Assembly: GCF_004010195.1 (NCBI RefSeq)
Contig: NC_057719.1
Coordinates: 37,178,535-37,198,534, forward strand
From: Chiloscyllium plagiosum
Lineage: Eukaryota
Direction of reading: 5' to 3'
DNA: 20,000 nucleotides
Position 1 is the first letter of the stretch. Every line of letters begins with the position of its first letter. Both the position numbers and the translations under genes were made by a program. The notes below the pieces were generated by a model. That model did no database searches, had not been told where the DNA came from, and was given only the letters and a program-made list of their open reading frames with translations. Of the stretch, positions 3,140-20,000 are shown one piece after another.

Positions 3140-4290
3140 TTTATTGTGAGCAAAATGGAATAATGAAGGACAGAAGTTTTACTGCAGCTATACATGCCCT
3201 TGGTGAACTCGCAGCTGTGTTCAGTTTTGGTCTATTATTTGAGAAAAGAATATAATTACTTTAGAAGCAGTTAAGAGAATGTTCACTTAATCTATTCTTG
3301 GGATGAAGGCCTTGTCTTACAAGGAAAACTTGAACATACTGGGCCTACATCCTTTGAAGTTTAGAGAAATGAGAGGTAATTTTGCTGAAACATATGATCC
3401 TGAGGTGACCTGAAAGCATGGATATGAATGCAATGATTTCTTTTAATGGGGAGGCTAGAACTAGGAGACATAAGTTAAGAATAAATTGTGTCCTCTTTCA
3501 CATGGAGATGAGGTTTTCTTTCCCTCAAAGAGCTCTTAGTCTGCAGACATTTCTTCAGAAAGTAGTGGAGGCTAGTCATTGAATTCAGTTGAGGCAAAGT
3601 TTTGATCGAAAAGAAAATCAAGGGTTATGGGTGCAAGTAGGAAAGTGGAAATGTCAAGACAATAATCAAATCAGCCACAGTCTTATTGAATAGTGAGTAC
3701 ACAAACAGGAGACTGGAAGAACACATCGTGCCAGGCAGCATCAGGAGGTGGAGAAGTCAATGTTTCGATGTAACTCTTCTTCAGGACTGCCCTTCTTCGG
3801 GACTGGGGGTGGGTGTAAAGAGAGCTGCAGATAAAGGAGGTGGTAGGGGCAGAGTGGTGAAGACAGGTAGAAGGTACGATCTGCTTGGTCAGTGGGAGGA
3901 ATGAATCTAGTAGGTGGCTGGGAGCAGTGGAAGGTGGGGGTGGGGCTAGGAAGTGAGTCAGGGGGTAAGAAAGGTTATTTGAAATTGGAGAATTCAGTGT
4001 AGAGTGCTCTGGCTTGTAGGCTGCCCAGGCGGAAGATGAGGTGTTCCTCCAATTTGTGGTTTGGTTCATTGTGGCAATGGAGGAGGCCAAGGATGGTCAT
4101 GAAGAAGGGTTACACCCAAAACATTGATTTCTCCACCTCCTGATCTTGCCTGGCTTGCTGTGTTCTTCCAGCCTCCTGATTGTCTACTTTGGATTCCGGC
4201 CTCTGCAGTTTTTTTGTCTCTAACCTGATTGAATAGTGAGGCAGGTTTGAAGAGCTGAATAGCCTACTGCTGTTCCTAAGCCCTATGTTT
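3140..4290 (+). mobile_element. Decayed CR1-clade LINE 3' end, interrupted by a Penelope-like insertion at 3698-4227
   Basis: EVLLQLYMPL / VQFW / GMKALSYKENLNILGLHPLKFREMRGNFAETY-like remnants. The 3'UTR is split at the duplicated attgaatagtgag and resumes 'gcaggtttgaagagctgaatagcctactgctgttcct'. Confidence 0.8.
3698..4227 (-). mobile_element. Penelope-like retroelement fragment (GIY-YIG endonuclease C-terminus) with inverted pseudo-LTR copies and 13-bp TSD
   Basis: Minus-strand 4100..3975 reads MTILGLLHCHNEPNHKLEEHLIFRLGSLQARALYTEFSNFK*, typical of the PLE ORF end (LEE.HLIFRLG.LQP.GLN). 3700-3785 and 4100-4185 are inverted copies. TSD attgaatagtgag at 3685-3697 and 4228-4240. Confidence 0.85.
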
Positions 4291-4660
4291 CATCCTCATC
4301 TGAACCAAATTTCCACATCCCGGAACCCACCTCATAAATCATTTCACGCGCTCTAAAGCCGTCACATCATTTTTAAGGTGTGATGCCCAGCACTATCAAT
4401 AATAAAGCAGTGTCATCAAAGCTTCATCACAACTTCCTTTTATACTCAATGCCTTGATTTATAATGTCCAGGATCCTGTGTGCTTTATTAACTGCTTCCT
4501 CAAACTGATCTGAGTGATTTATACAAATATACACCTCACTTCACTGTGCCTGAACTTCTTTAGAATTTGTATCCTTTGCATTATCCCACGCCAGTCTTAC
4601 AACAATGTAACACTTCAAATTCAGCTGATTTAATTTCATATGCCATGTATATGCCCTTTA
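4291..4660 (-). mobile_element. Old CR1-clade LINE fragment (part 2 of the 2850-3135 element)
   Basis: Antisense CR1 motifs 'gtgtgatgcccagcacta', 'tatactcaatgcc...aggatcctgtgtgctttattaactgc' and 'tttaatttcatatgccatg' are collinear with where 2850-3135 stops. Confidence 0.6.
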
Positions 4661-5870
4661 TCGTTCCAGTGAGGTATGAATTATTCAAGTCCTTACACAG
4701 AAATGTACGTTGAAAAATCTTTCTAAAACACTGGGTATATTAATCTACAGCTATTTTAATATCCACGATCTGTCATTGGAATTAGTTACTCACCATTTGC
4801 TATGCTGCTGATTTTGCAATCATTTTAAATTATGCGTGTCAAGTTTGGATTATTTTTAGAGTGGCCAGACTGATTGGTGATCATTCATATTTGATTGTTG
4901 AAATGTTGGGGCTACAAGGTTTAGATGCATGGAAACGAATCACACTCCATGATTTTTACAATAGCAGATAAAGCCAAAATTGTGAGCCAATGTTTTCCTT
5001 TTTACTGATGTAAGCTCAGTTTTTAACGTCTGATCAAATAATTCAAAGCATTTTAATTTCTTATCACAGTTCAGATATTTTAGGCTTGGGTCCAGTTAGA
5101 TTGATTGATTGCTTCTGACCTGCCTCCAATGCCTTTACAGCCTTGGTGACCAAAATAGTCTACAATATTCCAGACAAGGTTGTACAAGTGCCTTGTCATC
5201 AGCCTAGGGGTTTGTACACTATCGCTTAATTACACATCAAGAGCTGGTTACCTTCCTACTGGTCTAGTACACTATGTTCTTGGGTTCACAAGTCATGCAT
5301 CAGATCTCACTCCTGTGTTGTGATTTGTAAACTGCTGCCATCTACTTTATGATCCCACCAATATTTCCATTTCCTAGATTTATTGACTTACATTAAAAAA
5401 CATTTGCAGCCAAGAATGACATAATCTATACAGCTACTTCTGGCACAGCCCCTCTTCTCTCTGCTCATAAAGCAAGCCAACTGCCATGTTCCAGTTCATT
5501 ATACTCTTTTGGTCAATGTTTTTACAATTGTAAGAAACAAACCATTATAAAGTCATGCTTCGTATTTAACTTTTGGCATTTTGAGCTTCAGACAGTCCTA
5601 AGTCTCAAATAGATACCTAATTAAATATGGACACACAAAACTAACTAGAGAATTCACATGTCTTTGTTTAAGGATGGATTGACATAAAAAAACTAAAGAA
5701 TTCCCAAAGGCATGACTCTCTCTTTACACATTGACAAAAGTGAACATCGAAAATCAATGTATATATGATAAATGTGTGTTGGTATTATGTCATGTTGGCC
5801 CCTCATTCAAAATAGAAAGACTGCTCCAAACTCTCAGGGTGTCAAACAACAACGTGGGATGATTAGAATC

Positions 5871-6557
5871 AACACTTCCATAAGATGGTAGTGGAGTAGG
5901 GCTTCTGAACCCAAGACTCGTCCACTCTGTCTGCTTTTTGGTTCATTTCTTTTCTTTTTTCTCTTCTCTCATTTATTCTCCTCTGTTGTTTTATTTTACT
6001 GGCGTCTTGGTGAAGAGCTCAGTCATGGTGATGGCATCAGCAGCAGCAAGTAGGCCTAGCGGCGCGGACTCGCAGCATCAAAATCGGAGGTGAGTCTGGT
6101 TCCCAATAGTGGCTGTGTCCAGCACAGATTAATGGAGGCAGCAACCAAGGCGAGTTCAGGCCCAGCTCTAAGCCTGGTGGCAATAGCAACAGCTGTAGTG
6201 GCGAGGCGGGCCTGAAGCGGACTCCTGGCACCGGTGGAGTTGAGTTTGGGCTGGTGCAGTACCAGGTCCAGGAAGGACTCATAATGGCGAGGGCATCGGT
6301 GGAGGGAAGGTGGTGCTGAATAGTGGCAACTTTCATTCCAACAGTGGCAGCGTAGCAAAGAAGACTCATGCCTAGCCACCAGGCCCATGGCCGACAATAG
6401 AGCACTTAACCAGAAGGACTTTTTCATTATTTTTCATTTTTCTGCCTTTTATATTCTATTTTTCTGTGCTTAAAGGTGGCGCTAGAGAGACACACTACAA
6501 CAATTTTCATTATTTTTGTAACAAGATCCATGTGACAATAAATCAATCAAATCAAAT
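5871..6557 (+). mobile_element. Unclassified non-autonomous retroposon with GC/CpG-rich core and AATAAA+(TCAAA)n tail
   Basis: 5' 'acttccataagatggtagtgg', pyrimidine tract 5935-6000, CpG-rich core 6000-6400, and 3' 'catgtgacaataaatcaatcaaatcaaat', a simple-repeat tail of the kind made by non-LTR retrotransposition. Confidence 0.55.
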
Positions 6558-6689
6558 ATCACCCTTTGATTGGAAACATGACTTAGACTTGGCAAGCTAC
6601 ATTATGATGAAGTCTTTTTGTCTGCTTTTAAATGAGCTGGAAATTATTTGTAAGCAGAGAGAATTTCACTGAAAGCCAATGTAATAAAT

Positions 6690-7205
6690 AGTAATAAAAA
6701 TAAAAAGCACCAGAAAACATAGCAAGCCTGATAAGATTTGTGGACTGAGAAATGGAGTTAACATTTCAAGATCAATGATACTTCCTCAGAACTGCAGGGA
6801 GCTGGAAAATTTTGATACTGTTGACAAGGTGGAAGGAGAAGCCAGTAGAATAGATGATGAGGGTTCCTGGAGCAACAAAGGGTGTGCTAGTGGTTGTACA
6901 AGAGAAATGTTGATACAAAAATACACATTAATGATAGGAATGAATAGTAGAAAATACATCAGTTCTGCTGAAGGCAAATCCATGCATGACACCGGAAAGG
7001 GAATGGACAAAAGGATTGCAATCAATATGGACCACAGGTTCATGCTTTAAAGCTGCTGAACTCAATATTGAGTCCTGAAAGCTGTAAAATGCCCAAGTGG
7101 AAAGTGGTGTGCTGATTTTCTGTTTGCATTAGGCTTCACTGGGACTCTGCAACAGGCTTGGGATGAAAATGTCAGCATGGGAGGAAAATGGCATATTGTA
7201 ATGTA
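6690..7205 (-). mobile_element. Old Penelope-like element 3' fragment (GIY-YIG C-terminus plus pseudo-LTR)
   Basis: Minus 7114..7040 = QHTTFHLGILQLSGLNIEFSSFKA*, homologous to the peptide at 3975-4100. Pseudo-LTR motif at 6700-6795. Confidence 0.75.
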
Positions 7206-7464
7206 TCTGTAATATTTTGCTTTCAATAAGCAACAATGCTTGGAATCCTCAAAGTTTTTCCTATTGTGATTCGAATGAGAATCAACCTCATGGACATTTG
7301 ACTGCAGGAAATCTTGAGGCTTACCGAGATTTCATCATTTTAAAGATCTTCACATCAATACAAGTGTCAATTTAATCTATAAAAAACACATGCTTGACAT
7401 GAAAGCTACTGAAACAATTATAAACTGGACCAATATTTATGTTATTATCTGAATAACAGCAATA

Positions 7465-9225
7465 TGCCAGCTGAAGCAGCCATTCCACTCTTTTGCCTGT
7501 TCCAGAATTCGAGATCAGGGATGATCATGCACCTCAAAGCCAATTTCCTGCGCTATCCCCAATTCCCTCAATGTGATTAATATCTATAAACTTATCAATG
7601 TCAGTCTTTAACTTACTTAATGATTCAGCTTCCACATCCTCTGATGCAGAGAATTTCAAAGATTCAATTCAAAGATTTTCCTGAGTGAAGGAAGTACTCT
7701 CACCATGTCCTAAACGGCAAGCTTTTATTCTGAAACTGTGTCCACTGCTTCTATGATCATCCCATACCCCCACCAATGTTACAGCCCCACACCAGGAGAA
7801 ATATCCTTTCGACCTCCACTCTGTCTGGCACTTTAAGAATTTTGTAAGTTTTAACCAGACCAACTTTCAACCTTCAAATTCAATCCAATCTAAACCCAGT
7901 CTCACTTTCTCCTCAAACTCTCTCCATTCTATAAATTAGTCTGGTAAACTTCATTGCACTCCCTCTATAGAAAGTATATTATTTCTTAGGTAAGGGCACC
8001 AAAACCGCACACAATACTCCAGGTACAAGTTCTCTGAGGCTCCATACAATTGCAGCAAGACTACTTCTGCACCCATATCTTCAGATGATAACGGTCAACA
8101 TATCGTTTGCCTTCAAATTGTTTATTACACATTAGTTATGAACAAAGACACGAGGTCTCTTTGGTCAAACATTTCCTAATCTCTATGTAAGCCATATTCT
8201 GCAATTCCATTCCTGTTACATTTGCCCAATCACGGAGCTTGTACAAATCCCCTTGAAGACTCTCAACATCTTGCACACAATTCCTACCTTATTTTGTGCC
8301 ATCTGCAAACTAGGAAGTAATGTATTTGATTCTTGCGGTACCCCACTAGTCACATCCTGCCAATCAGAGAATGATCAATTTCTTCCTACTCCATTTTTCT
8401 TTCTGAAAACCAATTCTCAATCTACAAACACTTTTTATACCTATCTCAGGCTGTAATTTTGTTTATTACCTGATTGGTAATTTGAAAACTTCCAGAAAAT
8501 CAAAATACATGACATCAGCTCATTCCCCCTCATAACAGTCTACAATAAATCCAAACTCAAAAGCTCAAAAATCCATGTTGATACTGCCCAATCAGATAAT
8601 TATATTCTTACTGTCTTATTATCATATCCTTTAAAATAGATTACAGTATTTTTTTGCTGCTACTGACATCAGGCGAATAGATGTGTAGTCTCTTAATTTC
8701 CCTCTCTCCTTTTAATTAATGAAGTTACATTTGCAACCTTCAATCTGTAGGCACCATTCAGGAACCTACAGAATATTGAAGTATGACCAGTGCATTTGTT
8801 ATCTCTACAGTCATCTCTTTTAGCAGGCTTAAATGTAGATCATCAAGTCCTAGGGATTTATTAACTTCCAGTCTCATTAACTTCCCCGATCCTGCTTTTT
8901 ATACTGTTCTGATTTGTCATTCTCACAACGCTCTTGGATCACAATTATTTCTTGGAGATTTCTTGCATTGTCCGCCATGAAGGCAGACACAAAATAATTG
9001 ATTAGTTTTTCTGTCATTCCCTTCCCTAACATAAACTTTCCTATCTCTGCCTACAATGTATCCATATTTACCTTTGTTGACTTTTTTTTTAACATACTTA
9101 TACAAGCTTTTACAGTTCATTTTTATGTTCCTTGCTAGTTTACATTCATAATCTAGTCTCCCTTTTCTTAAATCAGTTTCTTGGTCCTCCATTGCTGAAT
9201 TCTAAAATGTTCCCAATCTTTAAAG
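7465..9225 (-). mobile_element. Decayed, internally deleted CR1-clade LINE (ORF2 linker to 3'UTR)
   Basis: ORF 8923-9192 DLRKGRLDYECKLARNIKMNCKSLYKYVKKK matches the CR1 ORF2 linker. Antisense 'gcggtaccccactagtcacatcctgccaatcaga' = SDWQDVTSGVPQ. 3'UTR motifs at 7470-7700. Confidence 0.85.
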
Positions 9226-9227
9226 TT

Positions 9228-9362
9228 TCCAAAACCAGAACAGTATGGATGCTGGCAATGTAAAATCCACACAGAAAATGCAGGAGAACCTCAGCTGGTC
9301 TGGCAGAATTGGCAGAGAGAGAAACCAAGTTCATGTCTTGAGTCCAATATAACCCTTGCTCA
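9228..9362 (-). mobile_element. Old Penelope pseudo-LTR remnant (target of the younger fold-back insertion)
   Basis: 'ggatgctggcaat...acagaaaatgcaggagaacctcagctggtctggcag...gagagagaaaccaagttcatgtcttgagtcc...acccttgctc' is homologous to 9390-9500 and 6700-6795. Confidence 0.65.
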
Positions 9363-9373
9363 AAAGAAAATTA

Positions 9374-9602
9374 TGAGGAGAAAGTGAGGTCTGCAGATGC
9401 TGGAGATCAGAGCTGAAAATGTGTTGCTGGAAAAGCACAGCAGGTCAGGCAGCATCCAAGGAACAGGAGAATCGACGTTTCGGGCATAAGCCCTTCTTCA
9501 GGAAGGATTCCTGAAGAAGGGCTTATGCCCGAAACGTCGATTCTCCTGTTCCCTGGATGCTGCCTGACCTGCTGCGCTTTTCCAGCAACACATTTTCAGC
9601 TC
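9374..9602. mobile_element. Young palindromic (fold-back) Penelope pseudo-LTR-derived element with TSD
   Basis: Arms 9410-9504 and 9508-9602 are reverse complements (2 mismatches in 95 bp, 3-nt loop GGA). Direct repeat gctcaaaagaaaatta at 9358-9373 and 9599-9614. Confidence 0.9.
9507..9542 (+). ncRNA. Minimal hammerhead-ribozyme-like motif in PLE pseudo-LTR (mirror copy on the minus strand at about 9470-9505)
   Basis: ATTC-CTGAAGA-A-GGGC(TTAT)GCCC-GAAA-CGTC-GATT gives core CUGANGA/GAAA, a 4-bp stem II, a GUC cleavage triplet and palindromic ACGU in place of stem III. PLE terminal repeats are known to carry minimal hammerheads. Activity is not shown. Confidence 0.6.
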
Positions 9603-9964
9603 AAAAGAAAATTAAACTACCTGAAAGTGTTTCTACAAAGATTACAATTTAAAGAAAAGGGGGAGTATGTAAGGTAATACTGGAATTCACCTTTGTCATC
9701 AAATATGAAGCAACAGTGCCATAAACTGGCAATTACTGTTCATTTTCACAGGTTGCAGCACAAACCGTACAGATATTCTCTTGTACAGAACCGTTCTATT
9801 TTTGATAATAGTTCATTTTCACATTACACATATATTGATGTATGACTAAAAATAACTAACTCAAGGAAAAGCTAACCACATTTCTAATTTTGCACAATTA
9901 GAAATATTTTAGGAAATTAAAATATAACTACTTAATTTGGCATGTATGTTATGTGCTTTTAGTA

Positions 9965-10315: not shown

Positions 10316-12354
10316 GATTTATTTAAACTCTGCTGTGTTGTTTAATATTACAGCTTATAAAAAGTGACATATTTTGAAAATTGCTAATTAAGATTTAGTA
10401 CATAAAGTTTACAAACAATGTGTGGCCAATAACTTTATTGCTCATTAAATATTTGATATAAATAAGATGTATAAATAGCAGAGGTATATTTATATAAATA
10501 TTCAATTCATCCTGTAATAATGTCTTAGATCTTTTCTATAAATAATGCCAATAAAACAAAAAATTATATTAAAGAAGTACTAATAAATGAAACTTTTTTA
10601 AAAATTGATGCTAAAGATTATTTGTCTAGAAGATAAACACAACCTTTCAATGATTTGCTACAATTCAGATACAGAGACCTAATATTATTCTTGTGTTGGA
10701 CATAATTTATAATAAGGAAAATTCAGAAAAACATTATATCCAATTGCAATAAGTTGATGACACAGGAGTTGTCAGTGGTGTCAACATAATAATCCTGTTC
10801 CTGACAACTGTATTTGTCACTATTAAGATTGAATTCAAGTACACAATATGTCAGTGTTGAGGCCAGATTCTGTTCATCATTGACCCCTCTCTTCCAGCAA
10901 ACCATCCTTCTCTTCCACTTTCTAATTAATTACCTCATCCATTTTTTGGTGAAGCTACATGTAAGCAAGCTTAATAAGAAACACACTAAGGATAAAGAAA
11001 AAATATTTTAGCTTTAAAATAAAACTCAAATCTACTTGCACCAATGAATCAGATATTTAAAATGACATAAATTCTAATCCATTACATATGAGGTTTCAAT
11101 TCTGCTCATCATCTTTAAATATGAATGAGAAAGATCTGACATTCTACTTGCTTTTTATAGAATATTACAGACATAGCATTCAGCCGTTCGATAAAAAATA
11201 AAGCATTGACACAGTAGGTTTCCTACCTGAGTTCTTCAGTTAGATACATGGCCTAATATAAAGGGTAGATCCTTTTGAAGAATTCAAAAAAAAAAGCAAA
11301 TCAGCATGAATACATCTCTGCAATTTCTAGAAATGACTGAGCCATAAATATGAATAAAAAAGGATTTTAACAATCAATATGATGCCTTTCGGTTAAGCAG
11401 AAAGAGCATGCCTGCAGTCTTCTTGCCAGAATGCTGCACATTATGATCAGCTTGTAAGGCTGAACCATGTGATGATTCCAGCAAGTTTCATTACTCTGAC
11501 AGCTGTACATTCACTGAAACATCTTTAATGAATTCTTCCACATTTATCATTCTTTTTGTACACAAAATTTAAAACGGTAGCTGTGACAAGCTACATAATA
11601 TATTATCCATATATTTACTTTAGCCATTTCACAGATGCTGCAGAAGACAGATATTTACGCAGCATTATGTTGTATTAAAATGAAAACCTACTCCTGAGAG
11701 ATCTATGAAACAGATTCCATGGGTGGCCATTGTTTAAGATGCAGTTGAAGGTCAATGGCTTCTTTCACTGTTGTAATTTATATGACGTTTTTTCAGATCT
11801 ATAAATAAATCAATGCTGACATTTTATTTAACCAGGTTCAAAATTTCGTACAATTGATCATTTCTGTTTGGAGAAAGATAACATTTATTTGAAATGATCC
11901 TGAGAGACCTGGTAAACAAATACTTGTAAAATCATAACGTGTTAAGACCTACGATGGATTCAAGAACAGTGCCCCAATTAGTTAAGATTTCCAGCATTGC
12001 AGAATTTTTCTTTTGTTCCAAATAAACTGTTGGAGCTTTGCAATCATGTGAAAATCTTGGTGTACAAGAGAAATGCATTTCACACTGCAGGCTTCAATTT
12101 TCTTTAAATTTTGGACAGTGACAATTAAATCACCTTCCATTATGTCCTGGATTTTAATAAAAACATTGACTTTAAAACAGCTATTGTCTTTGTCTTTATA
12201 AACAATAATTATTTACTTGCAGGAGGTCCTCAATTATAATAAATGTTATAATCACTGCACAGCTTTTGTTTCACTGAAAACATCTGGTTCTCCCTCTAGT
12301 GACTGGATGAAAGCACTGTAAATCATTATGACTTTTTTTACTCCACTGATTATG

Positions 12355-19036: not shown

Positions 19037-20000
19037 TAGGGAGAGAATAGGGTCCTTCAAAGATCAGCCTTGTGTGGAGCCACAGAAAATAGGGGAGACA
19101 CTGAATGAATATTTTGCATCAGTATTTACTGTGGAAAAGGATATGGAAGATTTTGACTTAGGGAAATAGATGGTGACATCTTGCAGATTGTCCATATTAC
19201 AGAGGAGGAAGTGCTGGATGTCTTGAAATGGTTAAAGGTGGATAAATCCCCAGGACCTGATCAGGTGTACCCAAGAACTCTGTGGGAAGCTAGAGAAGTG
19301 ATTGCTGGGCCTCTTGCTGAGATATTTGTATCATCGATAGTCACAGGTGAGATGCCGGAAGACTGGAGGTTGGCAAACATGGTGCCACTGTTTAACAAGG
19401 GTGGTAAAGACAAGCCAGGGAACTATAGACCGGTGAGCCTGACCTCAGTGGCGGACAAGTTGTTGGAGGGAATCCTGAGGGACAGGATGTACATGTATTT
19501 GGAAAGGCAAGGACTGATTAGGAATAGTCAACATGGCTTTGTGCGTGGGAAATCATGTCTCACAAACTTGATTGAGCTTTTTGAAGAAGTAACAAAGAAG
19601 ATTGATGAGGGCAGAGCATTTGATTTGATCTATATGGACTTCAGTAAGGCGTTCGACAAGGTTCCCCATGGGAGACTGATTAGCAAGGTTAGATCTCACG
19701 GAATACAGGGAGAACTAACCATTTGGATACAGAACTGGCACACAGGTAGAAGANNNNNNNNNNNNNNNNNNNNNNNNNNNNNNNNNNNNNNNNNNNNNNN
19801 NNNNNNNNNNNNNNNNNNNNNNNNNNNNNNGTGGTGGAGGGTTGTTTTTCAGACTGGAGGCCTGTGACCAGTGGAGTGCCACAAGGATTGGTGCTGGGTC
19901 CTCTACCTTTTGTCATTTACATAAATGATTTGGATGCGAGCATAAGAGGTACAGTTAGTAAGTTTGCAGATGACACCAAAATTGGAGGTGTAGTGGACAG
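19037..20000 (+). mobile_element. Young 5'-truncated CR1-clade LINE ORF2 (reverse transcriptase), running off the window end
   Basis: LKVDKSPGPDQVYPRTLWE, PEDWRLANMVPLFNKGGKDKPGNYRPVSLTSV, SQHGFVRGKSCLTNLIE, DLIYMDFSKAFDKVPH. After the N gap: [23 protein letters not shown]...[13 protein letters not shown]. One frameshift near 19160. Confidence 0.95.
19754..19830. other. Assembly gap (77 N)
   Basis: Run of N inside the CR1 RT. Confidence 0.99.

Follow-up and report, generated by a model that had tools for sequence, protein, structure and literature searches.

The stretch of DNA analysed here (the window) comprises 20,000 nt of the genome of the shark Chiloscyllium plagiosum (RefSeq assembly GCF_004010195.1, contig NC_057719.1, nt 37,178,535 – 37,198,534, forward strand), which totals 3.56 Gb. 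It holds remnants of Penelope-like elements (PLEs) from three families, referred to as A, B and C, and hammerhead ribozyme motifs lie in their terminal repeats, or pseudo-LTRs (pLTRs). It is quite probable that these motifs are loopless minimal type I hammerheads that cut only as dimers, or together with the element protein, in the RNA of active source elements, and that the copies in the window are inert remnants. The features are as follows.

3975..4100, minus strand: C-terminal 41 codons and stop of a PLE open reading frame (ORF; GIY-YIG end), family B, 5'-truncated; the translated 41-aa piece (4100 – 3978) shares 81% identity with the end of a natural frame of 213 aa at locus L144.
3830..3835, minus strand: TTTATC, a TATA-like box with a putative promoter role, starting 31 nt upstream of the native stem I A (3804); the motif occurs at -31 in other family B and A upstream sequences.
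3789..3804, minus strand: partial tandem duplicate (16 nt) of the 5' part of the ribozyme, seen in the sequence.
3755..3788, minus strand: family B minimal hammerhead with intact core, 4-bp stem I, stem II decayed to 2 bp, and a non-palindromic stem III (ACAU).
3696..3754, minus strand: family B tail, downstream of the predicted cut.
4096..4226, plus strand: pLTR arm in inverted orientation, located where the family B insertion has its 5' junction and containing the partial hammerhead 4100 – 4129.
7048..7114, minus strand: remnant of a family C PLE ORF end.
6756..6793, minus strand: family C minimal hammerhead with intact core, 4-bp stem I, stem II destroyed (1 pair), stem III AUGU.
9233..9362, minus strand: heavily decayed family-C-like pLTR remnant (blastn of 9320 – 9233 against a natural copy, E 2e-10).
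9376..9504, minus strand: family A arm with an intact hammerhead core (C3 = 9501, C17 = 9474), beginning 3 nt before the core and with a long tail reaching 98 nt past the cut.
9505..9506, plus strand: GG filler between the two family A arms, immediately 5' of the stem I A; likely a copy of an RNA cap, judging from the sequence and from the enrichment of G at this junction.
9507..9542, plus strand: family A minimal hammerhead with intact core, U.U in stem I, 4-bp stem II, ACGU, and a predicted cut after C9538.
9543..9602, plus strand: short family A tail, ending 64 nt past the cut; part of the element 5' untranslated region (UTR).

An initial annotation of this DNA listed four hammerhead strings (3788 – 3755, 6793 – 6756, 9507 – 9542 and 4100 – 4129), and all are present there with the letters as it gave them. 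Three were described as full copies with fixed cores, and an ancestral ACGU was deduced for stem III. The CTGANGA and GAAA cores are intact at 3788, 6793 and 9507, but stem II has shrunk to two pairs at 3788 and to one pair at 6793, and ACGU is found at 9507 only, the other two reading ACAU and AUGU. Intact family C copies elsewhere in the genome have a 5-bp stem II. The 9507 copy, in which C9538 is indeed position 17, keeps its core, but its stem I (ATTC/GATT) has a U.U mismatch that is family-wide. The partial motif 4100 – 4129 (+) lacks C3 and G12. Two further motifs had not been listed: one at 9504 – 9470 (-), which forms the second arm of an inverted duplication (95 nt, 98%), and a decayed remnant at about 9362 – 9233 (-). 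A strict descriptor (four Watson-Crick pairs in stem I, zero loop III) finds two matches in the window, at 3788 and 6793, while on 300 dinucleotide shuffles of the window it finds none in 297 and one in 3. No hammerhead family appeared among the 12 matches (up to E 10) of an Rfam scan of the window; only hairpin-shaped miRNA models did, all below gathering thresholds, and these matches arise because of the 95-bp hairpin. The window has no tandem hammerhead array. A non-LTR retrozyme (non-coding tandem repeats, each with one hammerhead) was thus rejected as the source, the copies being dispersed ends of coding elements.

The motifs are not chance occurrences. Eighty 10-kb stretches at fixed coordinates (776,778 non-N bases) contained 156 core matches, of which 43 passed the stem filter; in each of 10 shuffles none did. 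When the 156 unfiltered core matches were clustered by their tails alone, a procedure that avoids selection on stems, four repeat clusters were obtained (47, 5, 4 and 4 members, of which 31, 4, 2 and 4 pass the stem filter), the remainder being two 2-member clusters without hammerhead stems and 92 singletons. Among the 118 distinct passing motifs drawn from all loci collected up to that stage, every one has a zero-nucleotide loop III, even though 0 – 4 extra nt were allowed; 117 form stem II with one bulged base, and 101 form it only with the bulge. The high copy number predicted for these motifs is borne out by exact genome-wide counts of 98,826 for the GGG...CCC families and 14,930 for a separate family, F (reversed-pattern controls, 0), giving at least 113,756 intact cores; the 35-mer at 9511 – 9545 alone has 29,004 exact copies.

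Sixteen natural copies were aligned, and in these 87.5% of cells are paired, compared with 61.3% after shuffling; the G10.1 pair is G-C or G-U in all 16. The covariation score is 0.709 (0.229 shuffled), a value reached by none of 500 shuffles and far above slid controls (at most 0.16), and six of the seven stem I/II pairs show double-sided changes. The covariation that had been predicted for the stems of the three window families is therefore present, and both compensatory changes first noticed in the window hold in natural family copies: AGTC/GACT against AGTT/AACT in stem I and GGGC/GCCC against GGGT/ACCC in stem II. Against this, the number of pairs with double changes shows no excess over shuffles (119 of 500), and the 16 copies were chosen among descriptor matches and are mutually related, so that the shuffle test does not yield a probability. 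CATT and TGTT, which had been read as CpG-decay products, do derive from CGTT/CGTC in family copies.

Six families (A – F) were observed. Positions 15.2-16.2 are CG in five of them and GC in family F, where A-G-C-U replaces A-C-G-U and the cleavage triplet is AGC-UA (A17). Examples are L155:1498-1538 (-) and L163; the family is absent from the window. Departures from the 15.2-16.2 palindrome are mostly CpG decay, which cannot produce the swap from ACGU to AGCU. On sequence grounds the swap is a compensatory change in the putative dimer palindrome, and the existence of family F supports the palindromic, zero-loop stem III of the initial annotation, as do the 118 loopless motifs. This family amounts to a natural compensatory mutant for the dimer model and makes a comparison of homodimers with heterodimers possible. 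Families D (L102:5663-5708, -) and E (L146:60-104, -) are of Poseidon type, and have a loopless motif with a bulged U, a longer stem II and an A-U first pair in stem I. Family E also has TATAAATAG about 46 nt before the core.

The initial annotation took the loopless form to be a shark variant, and here it was mistaken: the same minimal hammerhead (min-HHR), with its bulge, palindrome and dimer model, was published for fishes, coelacanth and Xenopus (Cervera and de la Pena 2014, PMC4209133). The class was named correctly, and the shark is a new host for a described motif. Shared features are the type I topology, the absence of helix III and loop 3, an unpaired base between A9 and 10.1, G10.1-C11.1, a palindromic 15.2-16.2, a helix I of 4 – 5 bp, and many covarying families that are mostly dispersed single copies in truncated PLEs. 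Differences lie in copy number, which in the shark is more than tenfold that of coelacanth (4,000) or Xenopus (9,000), descriptors differing between the studies, in stem II, which is 4 – 5 bp in shark families A – C and 7 – 8 bp in Schistosoma, and in stem I, where the main shark family keeps a U.U. Sharks as a host group, an AGCU family, and a 5'-end or cap signature were not found in the accessible parts of that paper, its supplements being outside the comparison. It reports that the min-HHR monomer is inactive and the dimer weakly active. Obligate-dimer cleavage is plausible for the shark motifs.

Both the 3788 and the 6793 motif follow the end of a PLE ORF on the sense strand, and in general the hammerhead is found on that strand about 190 – 290 nt past the end of an ORF encoding reverse transcriptase (RT) and GIY-YIG domains. 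By itself, the 41-aa window fragment matched no Pfam family and no homologue, and longer natural frames were used in its place. The 213-aa frame of L144 matches PF01541 with E 0.001, below the curated cut-off, and a natural 674-aa frame (L185) upstream of a family A motif matches RVT_1 above the cut-off (35.9 bits, cut-off 29.6). GIY-YIG scores below the cut-off in genomic frames and above it in the homologue P0028, and the order RT then C-terminal GIY-YIG is given by tblastn. A CX4CxxC linker is seen in natural frames (CDRKRCKTC, CNRRRCKTC), not in the family E frame; a CX2-5CxxC linker between RT and endonuclease (EN) is common to Neptune and Nematis (PMC8557442). The nearest named relatives of the element protein are from Chiloscyllium punctatum (81%), Mobula, Stegostoma and Rhincodon.

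In L236 and L233 the sequence past the predicted cut runs into the N-terminus of the ORF, about 130 nt beyond the cut, and the tail is therefore 5' UTR. For most tails the end falls at +54 to +64 or at +97 to +98 from the cut, the two window arms ending at +64 and +98. The pLTRs, the inverted 5' copy and the optional tail are all present, as in EN+ PLEs. Among 30 N-terminal matches, an upstream motif in sense orientation occurs only in L223/L236, which is gapped and rearranged, and most long copies contain assembly gaps. The ORF start regions of L232-L234 and L236 carry CCTTCCTTGAAGAAG, which resembles the 5' part of the ribozyme and may be a template-switch site; L234 and L236 adjoin minisatellite arrays.

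The positions at which copies begin are informative about the RNA from which they were made. Among 192 family A copies found by their tails, 70 start within -6 to +2 of C3, 25 start in the 53 positions further upstream, and 47 extend by 60 nt or more; only 4 start within 2 nt of the cut. More than half of the boundary-starting copies (39/70) are fused to an inverted arm. An unrepresented subfamily was rejected as the cause of this pile-up, since none of the 31 non-inverted boundary copies share upstream sequence. The head-to-head junction of the window (arm, GG, ATTC; 9495 – 9520) also occurs at five other loci among the 20 best matches (L001, L002, L003, L007, L011 and L020 are listed); these were picked by similarity, and either independent formation or spread of the hairpin unit could account for the recurrence.

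At many of the junctions an extra G is present. The base before the family A stem I A is the native C in 15,396 copies and non-native in 5,724, and at the non-native junctions it is G in 65 of the 100 matches listed, where 26% is expected. The neighbouring junctions have G in 19 (one base upstream) and 13 (one base downstream) of the 100 listed. Applying the 65% to all 5,724 gives an estimate of about 3,700 family A copies with the extra base. Junctions that were fetched show it both beside inverted arms (15/22) and beside unique flanks (10/18), and a native sub-lineage as its source was rejected because the native upstream sequence is present in 0/40 of them. In L254 and L265 both arms reach exactly to the A, with a single G between them. 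In family F all four copies that start at an A located 8 nt before the core carry a G, and this prompted a wider test, in which G was found in 78 of the 100 matches listed (of 1,411). Upstream of these points lie promoter-like boxes: TTTATC starting at -31 in 21/53 family A and 12/24 family B upstream sequences, and canonical TATAAA at -30 or -32 in 10/21 of family F (truncated copies being included in all three denominators). The A itself falls within a match to the initiator-like consensus YYANWYY in 6/6 copies of families A, B and C that were checked and in 0/4 of families D, E and F.

An untemplated 5' G on L1 and SVA insertions has been interpreted as a cap copied by reverse transcription (Hancks and Kazazian 2016, PMC4859970), and the shark G shares with these its place at a fixed 5' end. 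L1 and SVA belong to another element class and carry the G on full-length insertions, whereas in the shark it marks internally primed copies of 95 – 130 nt. These patterns suggest an element RNA that likely begins, capped, with the first ribozyme bases and undergoes reverse transcription without prior cleavage. If the start is placed there, release of the RNA from an upstream co-transcript, the role of R2 ribozymes, cannot be the function of this ribozyme.

A different template was proposed in PMC4209133, namely PLE RNA cut by the hammerhead and religated or circular. The long copies that would span the religated junction (the 15,396 with native C before ATTC) are compatible with this, as is the invariance of the core between sub-lineages. 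A circle, however, has no 5' end, and yet 70/192 copies stop at the 5' edge of the ribozyme and an estimated 3,700 or so carry the added G, while a linear cut template predicts starts at G1.1, which were seen in just the four copies noted above. Hammerhead mutants, moreover, insert normally in vitro (PMC11167929). A cut template is for these reasons regarded as unlikely.

Alternatively, the pile-up may reflect a point at which RT stops or folds back through local self-complementarity (TTCCTGAAGAAG against its own complement), rather than a transcription start. The commonest single start is -3, where C (54) and T (33) prevail in the 100 matches listed, many junctions are fold-back inversions, and self-priming has been proposed for rotifer PLEs (PMC3846280). 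Such a stop would leave unexplained why a G goes with the +1 A in particular, why it is present at 10/18 junctions with unique flanks, why family F has it at a different offset, and why a TATA box lies 30 – 32 nt upstream; we consider it doubtful as the explanation.

The reading that is slightly favoured, then, is that transcription begins with the hammerhead, whose first base bears the cap, and that the ribozyme acts as a self-decapping switch. The gate would be a 4-nt palindrome specific to each family (ACGU or AGCU), through which the RNA ends pair, and only uncut RNA would be used for integration. Each pLTR would carry a TATA-like box and an initiator overlapping stem I on its 5' strand, with the +1 A as the first base of stem I (families A and B) or 8 nt before the core (family F). 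RNA polymerase II would start at this A, giving a capped RNA that begins with one hammerhead and has a second in its 3' pLTR, and the two could pair ACGU with ACGU (or AGCU with AGCU). On uncleaved RNA, the element RT would initiate within the tail, some 60 or 98 nt beyond the cut. From the 5' tail it would produce a cDNA of 95 – 130 nt that ends at the cap, often with an added G, and from the 3' tail a long copy truncated at random; the short and long cDNAs would then integrate head to head. Cleavage, where it occurs, would remove the cap and about 32 nt, and is therefore likely to be a brake or a late processing step, not a maker of templates.

Parts of this scheme have parallels in described elements. 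PAc, a green anole PLE from the Poseidon clade (Frangieh et al. 2024, PMC11167929), likewise has a hammerhead at the junction of pLTR and ORF and uses an uncleaved RNA template. Its RT starts internally, at two sites that define a tail of 30 – 40 nt, and the two shark tail ends at about +54-64 and +97-98 match these two starts; cleavage in vitro was reported only with the element protein and was not needed for insertion, and no RNA-seq ends were reported at the cut. The PAc ORF starts in stem II, whereas that of the shark has its N-terminus about 130 nt past the cut, and the linker of the window's families is of the Neptune/Nematis type, in contrast to PAc. No start site or cap signature for PAc was found in the accessible part of that paper. 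The rotifer and Drosophila Penelope pLTRs (PMC3846280, PMC2377424) share a core promoter within the pLTR (TATA and initiator-like TCACT in Adineta), the inverted 5' pLTR, the optional tail and palindromic junctions; a hammerhead goes unmentioned in the accessible parts of both papers. In D. virilis Penelope an intron opens 46 nt downstream of the start and extends to helix I, while the start suggested for the shark is at helix I itself.

Several observations weigh against the explanation given here, the capped start included. G is mildly raised also at C3 in family A (37 of the 100 matches listed). The signal in family B is weak (G before the +1 A in 38 of the 100 matches listed, p 0.005) and in family C it is not significant (13 G against 11 A, p 0.13), and no pile-up at the ribozyme edge was found in families D (0/4) and E (1/18). 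All of these letter counts were made by eye from the matches listed, not from all matches, the first 40 of family A having been re-confirmed. TTTATC departs from the canonical TATA box. A search for an intact tandem source element (5' hammerhead, full ORF, 3' hammerhead) through 20 loci with long ORFs, the 30 N-terminal matches and 8 extended loci found none, many being gapped. The decay of inserted copies is also not fully neutral, changes at G8 being 26% rarer than at a matched site (p 3e-5).

The fold may instead serve mainly as a signal for RNA pairing or protein docking, in which the palindrome joins RNA ends (of one or two RNAs) and an RT dimer primes on both tails, producing head-to-head insertions. 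Uncleaved templates, the 39 boundary copies fused to an inverted arm, and a weak stem I with its U.U retained in the main family would all fit, and the anole protein, a predicted dimer, extends both strands (PMC11167929). Conservation, however, extends beyond the palindrome to all the catalytic bases, across families, and Naiad PLEs make inverted copies without canonical hammerheads (PMC8557442). The 4-bp duplex is worth only -1.7 kcal/mol and the double hammerhead is not the minimum-energy form when two copies are cofolded, a result that is not decisive because nearest-neighbour models omit the tertiary energy of the core. A role confined largely to pairing or docking seems improbable to us.

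The initial annotation pictured the dispersed copies as working self-cleaving modules, and these might be imagined to act on host transcripts. There are at least 113,756 intact cores, core and palindrome are both intact in 16/24 sampled copies, and copies appear in polyA RNA reads in both directions. The state of the copies does not bear the picture out. Folded on either strand, the intact pair in the window gives one hairpin (9410 – 9602; -189 or -196 kcal/mol), and stem II is broken in the 3788 and 6793 copies, the former being paired in the fold to its own inverted arm; judged from this, the window copies are likely inert. A lone copy has no partner, and min-HHR monomers are inactive in vitro (PMC4209133); nor do copies end at the cut. 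Genome-wide, the catalytic G8 is changed in 337 cases compared with 456 for a context-matched C in the tail (against 29,004 exact 35-mers), so that its loss in inserted copies runs at 74% of the rate of the matched non-core base. Activity of the dispersed copies on host transcripts is accordingly very unlikely.

Decay in inserted copies is close to background. Rare non-CpG changes, counted in 24 copies anchored by tail and flank (from 174 usable tail matches), number 5/240 for the core, 23/1145 for the tail and 24/622 for the upstream part (p 0.29). Variants that distinguish sub-lineages affect 0/10 core columns and 10/26 upstream columns in the same copies. Since inserted copies decay close to background, selection appears to act mainly on the source lineages. 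In a polyA single-cell RNA run (X20), about 2% of the run yielded 3,460 and 1,094 reads with no pile-up of ends, the library being unsuited to showing either a cut or a start; loose read ends at 7515/7514 of L078 match genomic junctions. A second raw-read RNA run (X21) gave 0 matching reads.

The function of PLE hammerheads was "still a mystery" in a 2020 review (PMC7761336, accessible part). Our literature search found no paper on shark PLE hammerheads or on a cap G or start site at a PLE hammerhead, which is weak evidence of novelty as subscription papers and supplements lay mostly outside it; one chondrichthyan is included in bioRxiv 10.64898/2026.07.22.740005. The AGCU family and the start-site signature may be additions absent from the literature found, and AGCU possibly overlaps with variants of Lunse et al. 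Together they make the question of function directly testable. The more than 100,000 copies form a fossil record of the template RNA: where it started, its uncut state, and the bases that could not be lost from source elements. If the RNA starts at the ribozyme, cleavage amounts to decapping, which narrows the models and provides single-base predictions for start mapping and for tests in vitro.

Other observations in the window are minor. An ATG in loop II (9525 – 9605, +) starts a short frame that runs through the tail. The tail in this interval has CTGAC followed by a pyrimidine run and CAG, which we take to resemble a branch point and splice acceptor. Fragments at 1 – 700, 1320 – 1800 and 19060 – 20000 presumably derive from a reverse transcriptase of CR1/L2-type long interspersed elements, and one of these matched a similar piece in L102; a repeat at 2480 – 2810 is presumably a tRNA-derived short interspersed element. 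Between 9700 and 19100 there are five stop-to-stop frames of at least 90 aa, none an obvious host gene, and a coding-like stretch lies near 11380 – 11800.

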